From Podarcis vaucheri (lineage: Eukaryota): a stretch of DNA of 64,000 nt. Positions within the stretch are counted from its first letter, which is position 1. Every line of letters begins with the position of its first letter. A program made the position numbers and the translations under genes. The stretch lies in the NCBI GenBank assembly GCA_965113315.1, contig OZ220369.1. One strand, given 5' to 3'. Positions 43,666-56,605 of this stretch are shown here, one piece after another. The notes beneath the pieces were generated by a model. The model did no database searches and had not been told where the DNA came from. It worked only from the letters and a program-made list of their open reading frames with translations.

Positions 43666-44765
43666 AACTGTACAGCCAGTAATGTGCAGCCTCCCTGCCT
43701 GCCTTTGCTTTATGATCTGGGGGTATAGGAGGAACCATGATGTCTTCCCCTGTGCTTTAATTCAAGTGCAGACACCTAGGTAGGCTGTAATGTGCATAAC
43801 CGCTGCTGAGTCTATTTGCAGAATGAAAGGAAGGACCTTCACAGACACCCCTTGACGCTCTCAAAATTAAGGTAAGATGGACAAACCTTGCCCTCCACCC
43901 ACAATTTTTTAAAATCAAAATCCCCCCTCCCCTTTGATTATTTTCAAATGCAACTGATGAGAAATGGTCAGGGGGGAAATGCAGGTGAATTTTTTGGCAA
44001 AGCACTACTCTCAAGTAAGCATGTATAACATGGCAGCTGTAGGGTTCACTCTAGGGTTGCCACCCGTCCCTAGAAAAACGTGATTGTCTTTTCTGGGGGT
44101 GTGTGTGTGTGTGTGGAAAGTGTAACCTATTTGGACTTCAAACGGGATGCCTTTTTCCGTGTATTCAAGCTCCTCCTCCTCAAAGCTGTGAGGGCAGAGG
44201 GTGGATCTAGTGGGGGGAGCAGGAGAGCAAGAGCTTGAGCAGGAGTTTCTGTGGGCAGAGGGTGGGACCATGAGGAAGGGAGCCAAGAGAGAAAGAGGTA
44301 TTGCAGGACACAGGCAAAAAAGGATGGGCTGGGGTTGGGAGGAAGAGTCTGAGAGAGAGAGCTTTTGCGCAGGCAGAGGGTGGGTCACGGAGAGTGAGAG
44401 AGGGAGTTTACACAGGCCTGGTCCATCCGGTGGAGAGTGGGGGCGGGGGGAGAGCTTTTGTGAGAGCAGAGGTGTATGTATGTGTGTTGAAGAGTATGGG
44501 GGGGTACACTTTGCACAGTCTGGTGCAGAGTTTGCACAGGCAGCAAAAAGGGAAGAACAAGATCGGAAGAAAAAGAAAAGAAAAGAAAAGAAAAGAAAAA
44601 GTGCAAGGGCACTTGATCCCAAAACTCCTTTATTGTGAAGGTGGTGGTGAAGGTGATAAAGGTCAAATTTTTGCTCTCTGATTGTATTTATGTTATTTCT
44701 TTTGGAAAATGAGATTTCTGTAGGGCATAATAGTTTCATTTCCAGTGTGGCAATGCTTTTAAATA

Positions 44766-45859
44766 CCGTATTTTTCGCCCTATAGGACGCACCGGCCCAT
44801 AGGACGCACCTAGTTTTTTGGGGGGGAAATCAAGGGAAATTTTTTTATTTCCCCCCCCCCAGGTTTGCGCAGCCATCCCCAAGCTAGAAGAGGGAGACGG
44901 AGCCTTCAGGGACAGCCTCCCTAGCCTCTGTGGGGCAGCGCACTGCGCTACCCTGCAGAGGCTTTGCGCAACCATCCCAAGCTAGAAGAGGGAGACGGAG
45001 TGCTCCGTCTCCCTCTTCTGCCTTCAGGGACAGCTTGGCCGCTATCCCGCGAGCTTGTGGGGCTGGCGGGGGGAGAAGCAGGCTTGCTTCTCCCCCCGCC
45101 AGCCTCCAGATCAGGTCGGGGAATAGCGGGATGGCGGCGCTTCGCCATCCCCCTATCCCCCGAGCTTGTGGGGCTGGCGGGGGGGAGAAGCAGGATTCTC
45201 CCCCCCCCCGCCAGCCTCCAGATCAGGTCAGGGAGTAGCAGGGTGGCAGCACTCCGCCACCCCCCTATCCCCCGAGCTTGTGGGGCTGGCGGGGGGGAGA
45301 AGCAAGCTTGCTTCTCCCCCCCCCGCCAGCCTCCAGATCAGGTCAGGGAGTAGCAGGGTGGCAGCGCTCCGCCACCCCCCTATCCCCCGAGCTTGTGGGG
45401 CTGGCGGGGGGGAGAAGCAAGCTTGCTTCTCCCCCCCCCCGCCAGCCTCCAGATCAGGTCGGGGAGTAGCAGGGTGGCAGCGCTCCGCCATCCCCCTATC
45501 CCCCGAGCTTGTGGGGCTGGCGGGGGGGGCAGAAGCAAGCTTGCTTCTCCCCCCCGCCAGCCTCCAGATCAGGTCGGGGAATAGCGGGGTGGCAGCGCTC
45601 CGCCATCCCGCTATCCCCCGAGCTTGTGGGGCTGCAGGCTGCTGCCCACAAGCCTTGCGAGCCCGCGGGACATCCCTCCGGGCTTGCAAGACTTGCAGAT
45701 AGCTTCCTGAAGCCTGGAGAGCGAGAGGGGTCGGTGCGCACCGACCCCTCTCGCTCTCCAGGCTTCAGCGAAAGCCTGCATTCGCCCCATAAGATGCACA
45801 CACATTTCCCCTTCATTTTTGGAGGGGGAAAAGTGCGTCTTATAGGGCGAAAAATACGG
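44766..45859. mobile_element. TcMar-Tc2-like MITE, long form with internal tandem array
   Basis: TA|ccgtatttttcgccctataggacgcac ... gtgcgtcttatagggcgaaaaatacgg|TA; near-perfect 27-bp TIR and TA duplication. Confidence 0.93.
45045..45635. repeat. GC-rich tandem repeat, about 5 units of 111-116 bp, each unit palindromic
   Basis: gagcttgtggggctg recurs at 45051, 45162, 45274, 45389, 45505 and 45620. Confidence 0.95.
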
Positions 45860-47647
45860 TACACTCTCAGACCTGTCCCATATTTTGCCCCAACTGTCCT
45901 TTATTTTCCCTAACCAAAGGTGGCAACCCTAGATGACCGACCATACAGAAGGTTCCTGGTGGTGAAATACAAGTCCTACCACGATTTCGTCCTACCCTGC
46001 AGTATCCTGATTCTCCTTGGGCATCACTTCCAAAAGATTTGAGGCCCATCCAACATGGAGAATTCCATCGAAAGCTCCAGCTTGAAATGCATCCATTCCA
46101 CAGGTCTTCTGGTCCTTGGCAATATTTCCCCCTTAACCTTTTGGCTGCGCTCAAGGACTCAGCAGAGGTGTGCGGCACGCAGCATTTCACAGACTGTGTC
46201 CTTTGGCACCAAGGAGCGATTGCTTCAGCAGTCAAAAAAAGACTTCCAAGATCCTCTCTGGCTTTGCTTTCTGGGCCATGTAACATTCAAGTGTGGCTTT
46301 TGGATCTCTCTTACCCCGTCCGCCCCCCCCCCTCCACCGCACCTCTGCATGCAGACCAAACTGAGAGCTGCCGCCGTCTTTTATGACTGGCAGAAAATTG
46401 ATTGTTAAGCTCCAGGGAGTTTCCAGCACAGCTGTAAACTTTCAGAAATACTCGGTGACGGCTGAGAAACCTATAGAGTGCTGTTTCAATTCACAATACC
46501 CCCTTTTCATTCCTCAGTGCTAAGGAGAGGGAAGGATGTGAGGAGGTGGGGGGAGAAATCCCACCAGAATTTCTGCTGTGGTATTAGCCAGGTTTCAGAA
46601 AGAAATATGTTGCTCTGTGTTGTGTGTGCTCCCAGAAAGAGATGGCATGTTCTTCCAGGCCTATTAAGAGTGGGACTATGAGAAGACGATGCGTGCCTCA
46701 GGAACAGGTGTTTGGAAGCCCTCCTTCTGATGTCCCAAATGGGACAACTGTTGTGTCTCCAGATGACTCTCATGTGGTTGGCCAGTAGTTGGCTCTGTTT
46801 CCATGGCTAGGGCTTCTGCCAAAGCTGCCTGCCCCATCAGGTCTCTGGCACACCTGGTTGGAACATCAGCCCAAGTGACATTCCAACCTCGCAGATCAGC
46901 ATCGGCTAATCGGCCAAACTGTAATCCTACCCCAAGACTCGGGGCAAACAACCCCCCCCTTGCCTCAGTGGACTGTGTTTTTTTTTAAAAAAACCAAACC
47001 CACACAGGCTTGTCCTTCCAAAGTTTGGCTAGACATTCTCGATTTGAAAATAGGCACGGAAATGTTCGAGTGAGGGCCGTCTGTCTAGGTCTTATGATTG
47101 TCTATTTGGAAGCAACAAATAGTAGTTTAAATACACATACACACAGAAAGAGAGAGAGAGGGAGAGAGGGAGAGGGAGAGAGGGGGAGGTCTTGTACCTA
47201 GCCTCTTTTGCTCACTATTTTCTTGGGCTTCCTTTATTCACTGCTACAAGGGCATCTACATGTTAGGAATGAGGCACTGCTTGCTAGGTAGAGCACATGC
47301 TACATAGCTGCCAACATAAACCTTGTTCACACGTTACGCTGAACAAGACATCTCTACACACACACACACAAGTCTTTGTGGGAAAGACTGTGCAGCTCAC
47401 TTATTATGTACACAGGGCACACGGACTATACATTTGTGAGTTGTTGCACATGAATGACCATGCAAGTGTGCAACTCAACAATTTGAGTGCACAGGGACAC
47501 ATATTGTACACCCTGTGGATACAATGGGTGAGCATCCCATTTGTGCTCACGTAAATGGTACATCCTTCCTTCCTTCCTTCCTTCCTTCCTTGGCACTCTT
47601 GCTTTGCTTATGCTCTAAGAATGTTCTTAGTCTGCCTAATGGGAATG

Positions 47648-52127: not shown

Positions 52128-52363
52128 TATTAGTTTCTCACAGCTAGTTATATGTTGAGATACCACTGCATGGAAATCTTAATATCTAAGATAAGCTCCT
52201 GTTCTCACACTGGCACCTGGAATAAGGAGTACTGGTTAGTCTTAAAAGTTATCTGTGTGGGTTGCCTGCCAAGCATGAAGAAGTCTTTCACTTAAATTGG
52301 AAGATACATGCCACCCAGCACTCAATATGGCTTATGCAACCCCAACAACATCTAAGCTTCGAG

Positions 52364-53205
52364 CAGTGGTGTAGCGTGGGTTGTCAGCACCCGGGGCAAG
52401 GCAAGTAATTTGCGCCCCCTAACCCGTGGATTTTAGCACTCGAGTGTGAGCGCGCCCCCCCCCAGATGTTGCGCCCGGCCCCCTGCACCCCCCACGCTAC
52501 GCCACTGGGGCTGGGGGCGAGCGAAGGAGCCAAGAACCCCCCCCCAAAGGCTCAGCAGGAATTTATTAAATTTATTATTTGTGGAGCCCCCGCGGGCCGA
52601 GGCAGCCAAAGCCCCCTCCCCTCGGGCACCTCCCCGCCCCCTCCTCTCCTTGGGCTGTAGGTGGAGCTCCAGATCCGGGCTTGGCGAGCGCCTCTCCTCC
52701 CTGTCGGGTCCGGGGGCTTCCAGCCGTGCTCCGTCCTGCCCCCCCCCACGGCTGAGACTTGCGCTGAGAGGCGGAGCCAGCGGCACCCCCTTCTGCCGGG
52801 AGACCCTTGCCCGCCCGCCGGCTTCCTCTTGGAGGGTTTTGGGGAGCGCAGGGTGCAGCGAGGCCCCTCGGAGCTCTCCTCCCTCCCAGTCGGCAGAAGC
52901 AGCCGCCGCCTGTGGCTGGGCCGAGGGGATGGCGGCGGCGGCGGGGTGCGGAGGCTGCCCGTGCCCGGCCAGGTGTCGGTGGCGGTGTCGGCGCTGCTGC
53001 AGCGGCTGCTCCTCCTGCGAGCAGTGAGTGGAGTGCAGTCGCAGCGGCGGCCAAGGGCGCGCGCGCGCTAGAGCGCAAGGCTGGCGGTGGCGGCGGGGAG
53101 CCCGGCGGAGGAAGGAACGTGTCCCTTCCCTCTGGACTCGCCCCCCCCCCAGATGTTGCGCCCGGTGCGGCCGGCACCCCTGGCACCCCCCACGCTACGC
53201 CACTG
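52364..53205 (+). mobile_element. Non-autonomous hAT (Tip100-like termini) with doubled 3' end and about 630 bp CpG-rich cargo
   Basis: TIR cagtggtgtagcgtggg / cccacgctacgccactg; perfect TSD gcttcgag (52356-52363, 53206-53213); extra internal 3' terminus ending at 52507. Confidence 0.93.
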
Positions 53206-56064
53206 GCTTCGAGATCAGCTCTGCTAGACAGGACCTCAATGTACACCCTAGACTGCAGAAAATGCTGCACACCAGCCAAGCTCTCCCTGAAGCTTTAGGA
53301 GTCATGTCTGTTGCTGATGGGGTCCCCTGAGACCACAGGGATATAAGCATAAGTGTACTGCTTTGTAGTTTTCTTTTAGTCCACTTAATAGAATCTTTAG
53401 CCTGCACCCCATTTCTGTGTTCATTGTGTTCTGAATCCAAAGAGAATATTGGCTCCAAGGCAGAACACAAGCATCAATTTGCCACCATATGAGGGGACAG
53501 AACAGAAGAAGGTTTAGCCAGAAGGAGCTACAGCACTTTTATAATATTCATTTATACACTAAGATAATATTGGGGTTTTTTGGCACATCATTGTTTACTT
53601 ATCTAAAAACAATTTTTAAATCATGCTTTTCAGCCAAAAACAGAAGGCTCCCAGAGTGACTAACGAATCATAGAAACATAAAAGCCCCTGGCCTTAGCTT
53701 TACAATCTAAAAAGACCCAACACGAAAGGAAAATGGATTGTGAAGGAGGAAAAAACAAGCAAACTTAGATTCAAGTTCTTAGTTGCAAGTTGTTCTAATG
53801 ACCAGCTGGGAAGGGAAAAGATCATAAAATTGCCTCAACCCTTATAGGCCCTGTTCTCCACAGCAGAGAGCATGTTGTTATTATCTGTGTGGAGTTTGGT
53901 TTATTGGAGTTAAGCCAGACTTTTGACAAGGGTGAAAGTGAGGGTTTGAAGGAGGAAAGAGGGGCATAGCTTGGGAAAAGTCCTGAGGACCAAACTAATG
54001 GCTACATTCAACTTCCAGGCCTGAGGTTCCCTATGCCCACTCTGAACCAATCCAATCCCAGTGATACCCACAAACCAGTTTGGTTGCATAGTGTTATGAC
54101 ATCATCGCATCCAGTATTTGATTTTGAGTGGGTTGGATGAAAACAATAATCACCAAAGAAGCCCTGAAGGGAGAAAAGGTACTGTGAACAGAAGGATTTT
54201 GTGGTGGTTTTTTGGGAGTAGGTGTGTGTCTTCCAAACACGGCTTCCTTGCTGAAAAGAAAACTCAGATAACCTTCTGTTAACCCCTAGAACAAACAGTC
54301 CCTATACATGTCTGTTTTCTTGCCCACCAATTGTTCTATCCCCACACAATCTCACCCATGACATCAACTCATTTTACTAGGGTTCTGTCAGTCATGTAAG
54401 GCCTTCACCATAACTATACATTGCAAAAGAGCTGTTTTATTATCCTAGGAGGAGCTGACCTGGAAATATCATTGGCACAAATACAGCACACTCTATAGCC
54501 TGCCCAAGAGGTAATTGGGTATTGATGTGTTTGTTCAAGGAGGTCTCATGGTAGCGGAGCCACCATCCATATTCCATAGCTCAATCCACCGGGTCCATCG
54601 GAAGCTGAGCAGAGTAGCAATTGTTGTGTTGACAGTTTTATGGCCTCCCTACCTCAGCTATTCAAAGAACCACATTATGTCTATGACGTTACCAAATCTT
54701 CCCATTTGGAAGTCATGTCATTGTTATTTGGAAAGGGCTAGGCAGCCTCACTGGAAATGCCTTTTGTTGGGGGCTGGAGAGATTTTTATTTTTGCATTGT
54801 CAAATAATCTGTTAGGAGTCAGCATTATGTGCAGAGGAGTAAATTGAAAAGGAAATGCTTCTCGGACTTTCAGCATGTGAGGTGAGGAGGAAAGGAGAAG
54901 TTATTTAGCTCAACATACCGAAGGGGGAAATCATTTGCTCTTGAGCTCAATTGTGGTTTTCAAAGGTCAGCAGGGAAGACCTTTGCCTGGTGACCTTCCC
55001 ATTCCAGCTCATCTCTCACTAGGGACACAACAAACCCAGAGTGCTGCATCCCAGGGGTTTCCAGCCTTTTCAGACCCAGGGACACATTTTGAATTCTGTT
55101 GTGGGCACCACTACAAAATGGCTCAATGATAAGCCTCTTTTCCAGTTGGTTTAAAACAATGGTTTGAATTATATTTATTTAAATCAATCCAGGCTGCCCG
55201 ACGCAAAGTTAAAAGAAAAACAACAACACCCAGATGTACTTCTTTAAAAATGGGAAGGACAAGGGGCCTCAATTTGCATGGTGCCCACAATCTTCATTTT
55301 GAGGACCCCAACGCTAGACCATACAAGCACCATTTTTACCTCTTCTCCCAAGGCACTGTGATTGGAGTGCCCTGGGAAAACAATTAACTCTGTTTAAAAG
55401 CTAGACCTGCCCATCAAAACAAAAGATCCCCTCCCCTCTCAGGCTCTGAGTGTTTCCCCAGACAGGTTGATTTCAGTTCTTATGGTGAGGATCTAACAAA
55501 TCTGCTTTGTTTGGAGAGCTGAAGTCGCAGCACTACTTGGAAGCCTAAGGTCCCTGAGATGCCTTGAAGCACCTTGTAGATAATGCCTGATCTGGAAAGG
55601 TGAAAACCTTTCCTGAATCATCCTTATTCATCTAATTCATCTCATAATTTGGGGTACACCCGCCCCAATATTAGTCCACAACCAATGCTCACCCCTAATA
55701 ATAAATGAATGTTGTTATTTTAAAACTGAGCTGTTATTTTAAAACAGACCCAGAAAAGTCTTCAAGTAACTTACAATATATTTTAAAAATAAACGTTAAG
55801 TAAAAGCGCATAATAATGTAAGCACTCACAACAACACAGGCAATCCATTAAAAAAAAGCCACAAAGCAACTCAGCCCATTACAGCAGCAGAAAGTTTTGG
55901 TGCACCCAATATAGCAGCAAAAGAACATTATCATAGTTCATCTAAAGCCTGTGGGGAAAGGTAAGCTTTTACCTGGTGCCCAGAGAATGCTGGATGAGGC
56001 ACCAGGCAGAGCTCATGAAATTCTCCTCCGTTCCTTGCTGGAGCTAAACAAGACATAGCTATAC

Positions 56065-56605
56065 AAATTAGGAGGCTTTGCTGCCTTGTACTGAAAGAAC
56101 ATTGGTCCATTTAGCTCAGTAGGGACCGGCAATGGCTCTCTGGGGTGTCAGGCAGGCATCCCTCCCAGCCCTACCTGGAGATGTTGAGGATTGAATCGGG
56201 CAGTGGCGTAGCGTGGGGGGTGCCAGGGGTGCCGGCCGCACCGGGCGCAACATTTGGGGGGGGCGCGTTTGGCCGGCCCTCCTCGAGGAAGCAGGAACCC
56301 CACTGTCCTCGGACCTCCTCCGAAGGCTGGCGGTGGGGCGGAGAGACCTCCTCCCGCCGCCAGGCTTCGGATGGCTGTCCTGAAGACTTGTGGTGGGAGC
56401 AGTGGCGTAGTGTGGGGGTCAGGGGGGCCTGCCGCACCTGGCGCAACATCTGGGGGGCGCAGAAGAGACTTGAGTGCTAAAATCCACGGGTTAGGGGGCA
56501 CAAATTACTTGCCTTGCCCCGGGTGCTGAGAACCCACGCTACGCCACTGGAATCGGGTGCCTTCTGCATGCAAAGGAGATGCTCTGCTGCTGAGCTATGG
56601 TCCTT
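56065..56605 (-). mobile_element. Squam3-like SINE interrupted by the hAT element
   Basis: SINE sequence ...ggattgaatcggg resumes as gaatcgggtgccttctgcatgcaaa after the insertion. Confidence 0.75.
56201..56549 (-). mobile_element. Second copy of the same hAT family, doubled 3' end, about 133 bp of different cargo
   Basis: Perfect TSD gaatcggg (56193-56200, 56550-56557); internal terminus cagtggcgtag at 56400; ends nearly identical to those of 52364-53205. Confidence 0.93.

Follow-up and report, generated by a model that had tools for sequence, protein, structure and literature searches.

Positions 52508–53138 of the analysed Podarcis vaucheri DNA (64,000 nucleotides, hereafter the window) quite probably represent non-coding cargo of a multicopy hAT-type element; the cargo matches a single-copy host island, likely the promoter region of an ADGRL3-like gene, and was likely captured via a mini-element and a second right end. 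The features concerned are:

52364–53205 (+, 842 bp), whole non-autonomous hAT-type element of subfamily "A", with TIRs and TSD; 30 of 30 fetched copies are full length
52356–52363 (no strand), left 8-bp TSD, same letters as 53206–53213
53206–53213 (no strand), right 8-bp TSD, perfect match to the left one
52364–52507 (+, ~144 bp), inner complete mini-element (MITE) with left end and inner right end
52491–52507, inner TIR, right terminus of the inner mini-element
52508–53138 (+, 631 bp), cargo 1, host CpG-island fragment; source G000:C39:41142917–41143572 (L144:1290–1945)
52560–52581 (no strand), AT-rich run with two minus-strand AATAAA, not in the present host island
52805–53138 (+), 3' part of cargo 1, re-used, with an internal deletion, by subfamilies A' and A'' and by a Buster-type element
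52890–53023 (+), exon-like 134-nt segment, likely no real exon (weak donor; host 18 nt shorter)
53139–53205 (+, 67 bp), outer right end with TIR 53189–53205 and intact subterminal motif
56201–56549 (−), another element of this family, built alike, with a different GC-rich cargo (56267–56400); 1312 candidates

The 842-bp element comprises, in this order, a complete mini-element, the cargo and a second right end. Its TIRs are 17 bp long, and the inner right end lacks 9 nt of the subterminal motif. The TIR motif occurred six times in the window versus 0.04 expected. An 8-bp TSD together with short TIRs is the mark of hAT transposons, and on this TIR/TSD structure the element is classified as a non-autonomous member of the hAT superfamily. 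All 30 fetched A copies were whole elements with both ends and differing 8-bp TSDs (26 perfect, three with one mismatch and one with two), and 19 of the 19 A' copies examined also had 8-bp TSDs. A central TA in the TSD characterizes the Buster/Charlie subgroup of hAT elements; it was found in only 2 of 129 TSDs of the A-element family, which places the family outside that subgroup, and in 53 of 53 TSDs of a second hAT family. This second family (L079–L107, L186–L215) contains at least two GC-rich interiors with more than 1000 candidates each, one of which, by its motifs, looks like the promoter of a housekeeping gene together with a first exon and a splice donor.

The source of the 134-bp, GC-rich cargo at 56267–56400 was also sought. 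Outer ends and TSDs were present in 29 of 30 fetched copies, and no parent locus was found among the 1312 candidates. In 574 kb of contiguous sequence, a small sample of which 490 kb surround the source locus of cargo 1 and which takes in the window itself, five family elements with TIRs and TSD were found, four of them with GC-rich interiors. Another non-autonomous DNA element, GC-rich (0.65) with inverted ends and a tandem array of five 115-bp units (45042–45634), lies at 44764–45862 of the window.

Cargo 1 as a query returned 449 candidates; here and throughout, copy counts are of candidates, not of verified copies. Forty were scored, all full length, and 39 were other copies with 92–94% identity over the whole cargo. 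DNA contigs of four public runs bearing four organism labels covered the whole of cargo 1. The carrier is multicopy, with likely hundreds of copies. The 30 aligned A copies differed from their consensus by 1.7–3.8%, with the window copy the most diverged (3.8%); being the best-ranked 30 of 449, they are biased downward in age and give a lower bound for it. CpG sites were changed in 391 of 5443 cases (7.2%) and other sites in 223 of 19727 (1.1%), an approximately sixfold faster change at CpG, whereas the consensus retains a CpG o/e of 0.8. Judged from the copies' sequences, this pattern suggests methylated copies decaying after a young burst, for which it is expected.

A sequence-only reading had described 52508–53138 as a recently captured host CpG island with an exon-like segment that could supply an ectopic promoter or exon. 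The motifs listed there all lie where it placed them, its frames read as given, and its segment coincides exactly with the cargo: the inner TIR ends at 52507 and the outer right end starts at 53139. The high GC and CpG density was confirmed (GC 0.716, 57 CpG and o/e 0.70, versus 0.448 and 0.25 for GC and o/e in the window). By CpG island thresholds (>200 bp, GC >50%, o/e >0.6), both the window copy (0.716/0.70) and the corresponding host segment (0.805/0.85) qualify. That the segment is a transplanted host island was borne out by a TIR-free, single-copy source (L144); the contrary outcomes named in advance, no TIR-free paralogue or a donor outside any CpG island or exon, were looked for and the claim survived. 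The orientation, which had been left unfixed, is likely that of the ADGRL3-like gene, whose strand corresponds to the + strand of the cargo. "Recently captured" fared worse: the segment at 52508–53138 is one of hundreds of candidate copies, and recency is unsupported because the subfamily consensus already differs from the host island by 8% and by about ten indels.

The individual signals were compared with 300 dinucleotide shuffles of cargo 1, using rough splice matrices. A pyrimidine tract and AG acceptor end at 52889, and a gca|gtgagt donor stands at 53023/53024, with 134 nt between them; an equally good pair occurred in 25 of 300 shuffles. A GC box was present in 38 shuffles and an ATG in good context, like that at 52929, in 178, but two AATAAA in none. 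Composition and the AT-rich run therefore exceed chance, the ATG and the GC box do not, and the exon-like pair is borderline. The host island shares the pyrimidine tract and the ATG with cargo 1; it has a C-rich tract in place of the AATAAA run, and gtgagc at the donor site. Two element copies retain the host's C there, indicating that the T arose by CpG transition in the main master. The exon-like character claimed for the segment was weakened further: the donor scored 1.56 versus 3.8–6.2 for the sites that the host island itself has further 3', and the host has gtgagc and 18 nt less. None of six long cargo frames gave a Pfam match above the cut-off. The 134-nt segment is probably not a real exon.

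The source of cargo 1 (L144, G000:C39:41.143 Mb) has 429 identities in 565 aligned positions, with 98 gap columns, and sits in a 1.16-kb island with 77% GC and a CpG o/e of 0.83. Homology starts with the first base after the element's inner TIR and is clear to about 53117. The last ~22 nt of the cargo align poorly and are of uncertain origin; 12 of them also precede the right end in an unrelated fragment. With L144 as the query, the locus matched itself once and the next matches had 71–76% identity, 14 of 14 fetched being TIR elements; the host's indel set was retained in none of eight aligned TIR-element loci. Searches with junction patterns lacking the TIR gave element copies and chance matches and no source, because the source is too diverged. 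It was found by a spacing pattern taken from one diverged DNA contig with shorter spacing, which gave seven matches (one source, five deletion copies and one chance match). Loci L041 and L042, considered as a continuation of the source, were rejected; their continuation is a second transposon family.

The large distance between island and element would also be expected if the direction were reversed and the C39 segment were an old element copy that had lost its TIRs, and a family MITE does lie 155 bp upstream of the segment. That MITE (L144:991–1135), however, is an independent 145-bp insertion of another subtype; it has a separate TSD, and its right TIR is damaged. Moreover, the 3' part of the C39 island has no repeat matches, with more than 500 bp of unique GC-rich DNA continuing the island beyond the segment, and the parallel source of a second cargo (L134, described below) adjoins an exon whose conservation extends to turtles and birds. 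We therefore regard the reversed direction as extremely improbable. No excision footprint was visible at either source.

Three splice-donor-like sites were found on the + strand of the L144 island and none on the − strand, all 3' of the captured part. A signal-peptide-like first coding exon lies 200 kb downstream on the + strand, and a lectin exon, with 68 of 70 residues identical to ADGRL3 in the PDB, lies 230 kb downstream on the same strand. Rough scans of the listed frames revealed no recognisable coding exon, either in the window or in the 220 kb that precede the island upstream. Two further GC islands, lying between the C39 island and the first coding exon, are TIR/TSD-bounded or partly repeat. 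By strand, distance and the lack of other recognisable exons, the C39 island likely serves an ADGRL3 (latrophilin-3)-like gene as distal promoter and non-coding first exon. Counting against this link, a minus-strand ORF with a Fez1 domain and an ERV-like stretch separate the island from the coding exons of the ADGRL3-like gene; the literature search returned nothing on the ADGRL3 promoter. The Fez1-domain (LZTS/N4BP3-like) ORFs, at G000:C39:41199520–41201492 on the strand opposite to the ADGRL3-like gene, possibly represent a nested gene, and the frames at about 41162000–41168000 of the same contig are retrovirus-like, with integrase- and env-like parts recognised by eye. An element of a third hAT-type family occupies G000:C39:41189122–41190176, with a different TIR and a perfect 8-bp TSD. 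Its CpG-island-like interior mimics a promoter island within the likely ADGRL3 5' region.

Cargo 1 is also found in part in sister subfamilies. A' (about 960 bp) begins with a mini-element, continues with cargo X, which is new and 480 bp long, and with the 3' part of cargo 1, and closes with the same outer end as A; it shares 274 nt with A at three mismatches. Cargo X matches a locus on contig C1 (L134; 414 of 492 identities). This locus lies in the first intron of a SOUL/HEBP-like gene, next to exon 1, and the closest named proteins for that gene come from Podarcis. Cargo X directly adjoins the inner TIR at its start, and its junction with cargo 1 is at the 5-nt microhomology GCCGG. A'' carries a third cargo, Y, ahead of the last 377 nt of A' (two mismatches, 99.2%). 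A'' had 46 candidates; all 40 that were scored were TIR-flanked, so that no source of Y was found among them, with six unscored, and a pattern search gave four chance matches. For cargo 2 and for the Buster-type cargos, sources were masked by more than 1000 candidates (1120 for one Buster-type cargo). Locus L040 has yet another 5' part joined to cargo 1, and two loci of the Buster-type family contain an A' element that is largely complete but lacks its right end. Since sister subfamilies combine new 5' cargo with the 3' part of cargo 1, capture was serial. GC-rich cargo is present in most subfamilies seen; of the later cargos, X is CpG-rich only in part and Y is AT-rich. In the SOUL/HEBP-like gene, exon 1 (L134:1916–2176) is itself GC-rich and shows several substitutions and indels among congeneric lizard proteins, the rest of which is nearly invariant.

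In both sources found, the cargo starts at the first base after the inner TIR. The inner right end is damaged, in the subterminal motif or at the terminal base, and the outer right end intact in four of four subfamily consensuses. Free MITEs away from the source had an intact motif in three of four cases, the fourth having one CpG change. The sequences show this junction geometry; we infer in which order the steps took place and that the outer end is preferred. A ~150-bp mini-element would have inserted at the edge of the host island. The second right end would have come from a neighbouring family member with its left part deleted, or through template switching, the left part of that second member being stripped by a deletion or a template switch at microhomology. 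The hAT transposase would then have skipped the damaged inner end and cut at the intact outer one, and the composite may have amplified, its copies later becoming methylated and now decaying.

The cargo could instead have been copied in by template switching (gap-filling/FoSTeST), with no second insertion near the source. The far junction in A', with 5 nt of microhomology and a 4-nt loss, would suit such a process, as would the location of sources and elements on different contigs and the Buster-type element that contains much the greater part of an A' element but not the right end; template switching is also what the consulted part of PMC8277862 proposes for multicopy animal Pack-TIRs. On the other hand, in two of two sources the near junction lies flush against a complete inner TIR, as for an insertion, and a pure switch from inside an element should not leave a whole extra right end. 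We consider this route a possibility of some weight, but the less probable one, and retain the account in which a mini-element and a second right end flank the captured DNA.

The distance between cargo and source was unexpectedly large for such an account in its simplest form. Outside the gap regions, 35 substitutions in 427 positions separate cargo 1 from its source and 39 in 408 (9.6%) separate cargo X from its own, and CpG transitions relative to the source amount to 4 of 118 and 1 of 46, respectively. This distance of 8–10% is far above that between copies and consensus, and in the parts that they share, A, A' and A'' diverge by about 1%. No intermediates between source and element were found among the copies scored. 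Such a distance, with hardly any CpG decay and no intermediates, is at odds with a simple recent capture. Change in the consensus of cargo 1 relative to the source was not significantly higher at CpG than elsewhere (12/118 versus 23/309, p = 0.43), positions with host G/C and element A/T outnumbered the reverse (35:16, p = 0.011), and both sources lie 1.8–1.9 Mb from a contig end. Our first choice for the divergence is fast GC-biased evolution of the host islands combined with a somewhat older capture.

Two other explanations were weighed. The elements may have formed in another lizard lineage and entered horizontally, the cargo then being another species' orthologue. This would account for 8–10% substitutions and many indels against either host locus, with CpG decay nearly absent, for star-like young copies with no intermediates, and for A, A' and A'' being nearly identical where shared while X is 9.6% from its source. 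It would, however, require several non-autonomous subfamilies all to have been transferred, and the 35:16 lean towards host G/C, the position of the sources near contig ends and the variability within Podarcis of the exon beside X suggest that fast islands can explain part of the distance; we find horizontal entry rather unlikely. Alternatively, an old vertical capture may have been followed by late amplification from a founder that the captured island kept unmethylated and still mobilisable. The consensus CpG o/e of 0.8, the lack of a significant excess of change at CpG relative to the source and the GC-rich cargo in most subfamilies seen are consistent with this, but not the compositions of X and Y; moreover, no relic copies were found, and present copies do decay at CpGs. 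We hold the unmethylated founder to be somewhat unlikely, and fast-evolving islands with an older capture remain our preferred reading.

Whether the window copy supplies an ectopic promoter or a spliced exon, as had been proposed, was examined in the same sequences and in RNA data. In its favour, the acceptor is strong and pyrimidine-rich (6.5) and present also in the host, the signals are kept in 28–29 of 30 copies, cargo 1 is likely promoter DNA, and a low RNA depth was recorded across parts of the cargo. Such retention is, however, expected at 2–4% divergence, the donor is weak, and the copy concerned is the most diverged of the 30. RNA-type contigs bridge 52889 and 53023 unspliced, and none of the 12 listed joints uses these positions, in runs of low depth and possibly of another species. 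Four RNA or presumed-RNA runs, again possibly from another species, had low depth on cargo 1; the flanks of the window copy had zero depth in four of four runs, which may derive from another species without the insertion. No coding exon was recognised in the window, family copies are CpG-decayed, and none of the public runs listed with cargo 1 was recorded as RNA. The proposed function is thus very unlikely, and the window copy is likely a silent passenger. Twenty-one single-cell reads piled at 52983–53019 were rejected because they continue into sequence unlike the source and belong to another gene's CTG repeat. The end modules of the family (window 52364–52445 and 53143–53205) drew tens to hundreds of RNA reads that originate from cargo-less MITEs, with one mate orientation favoured; unlike these modules, the cargo drew few.

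By its sequence, the 842-bp element is a Pack-TIR, an element of a known kind. Like the animal Pack-TIRs described in the consulted part of Tan et al. (2021, PMC8277862), it is a non-autonomous TIR element that carries host sequence and has a TIR-free parent and several TSDs: TIR-free parent copies were found in L144 for cargo 1 and in L134 for cargo X, and distinct TSDs in A, A' and A'' record recurrent transposition. Cargo of a Pack-TIR should moreover stem from an annotated gene; cargo X adjoins exon 1 of the SOUL/HEBP-like gene, and cargo 1 is assigned to the ADGRL3-like gene by strand and distance. According to the same part of that source, hAT elements are the commonest carriers, the multicopy cases are GC-rich, and a frog case took a 5' UTR. 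It reports four multicopy cases across 100 reference genomes of animals and no Pack-TIRs in anoCar2, its single lizard; Pack-hAT-N8_XT of Xenopus has three copies, and another multicopy case is given as five. The copy number here, in candidate counts, is far above these reported vertebrate figures (449 for cargo 1 and more than 1000 for other cargos), and the duplicated right end and serial re-capture are further differences from the animal Pack-TIRs as described in those sections (PMC8277862). P-element end-bypass 3' transduction, as outlined there, resembles our case in that the element carries DNA adjoining one end; it uses a chance TIR-like host sequence, whereas our element has as its outer end a genuine 67-bp end of the family.

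The mechanism that we prefer is the neighbouring-insertion model of plant Pack-TYPE elements, in which two insertions and the DNA between them move together after deletion or mutation of the inner TIR (Gisby and Catoni 2022, PMC8903248, in the part consulted). The elements treated there are from plants and carry coding fragments, and maize Pack-hAT clusters comprise over a hundred elements; ours are from a vertebrate and carry promoter or intron-1 DNA. In the lizard elements, unlike in the plant model as given in that part of the source, the inner right TIR is kept and the subterminal motif damaged. Redistribution of GC-rich host sequence is shared with rice Pack-MULEs (PMC5861414, as excerpted), which belong to the MULE superfamily and of which about 40% are transcribed, whereas the copies here are CpG-decayed and the window copy gave no evidence of expression. 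The literature search found no description of the A-element family or of lizard Pack-hATs; Repbase and Dfam may hold an unannotated consensus.

Multicopy gene capture by TIR transposons has been held to be rare in vertebrates, according to the consulted part of PMC8277862; here, hundreds of candidate copies were found together with an identified source. The three-step lineage from A through A' to A'' records the addition of cargo, so that both models, neighbouring insertion and template switching, can be put to the test in a vertebrate. Host islands that evolve fast may survive in an older state within the young elements. Tentatively, and with the odds against so broad a picture, wall-lizard genomes may harbour a large undescribed Pack-hAT population of at least three hAT families that has serially captured promoter islands and seeded thousands of island fragments, the islands having kept founders unmethylated and mobile (or the elements having originated in another lineage), hence the old-looking cargo without CpG decay. 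Many apparent CpG islands in the Podarcis vaucheri genome appear to be transposon-borne, which bears on promoter annotation and on methylation studies. Two loci on different contigs, L033 and L038, share a near-identical GC-rich stretch with differing downstream DNA, possibly another mobile CpG-island fragment.
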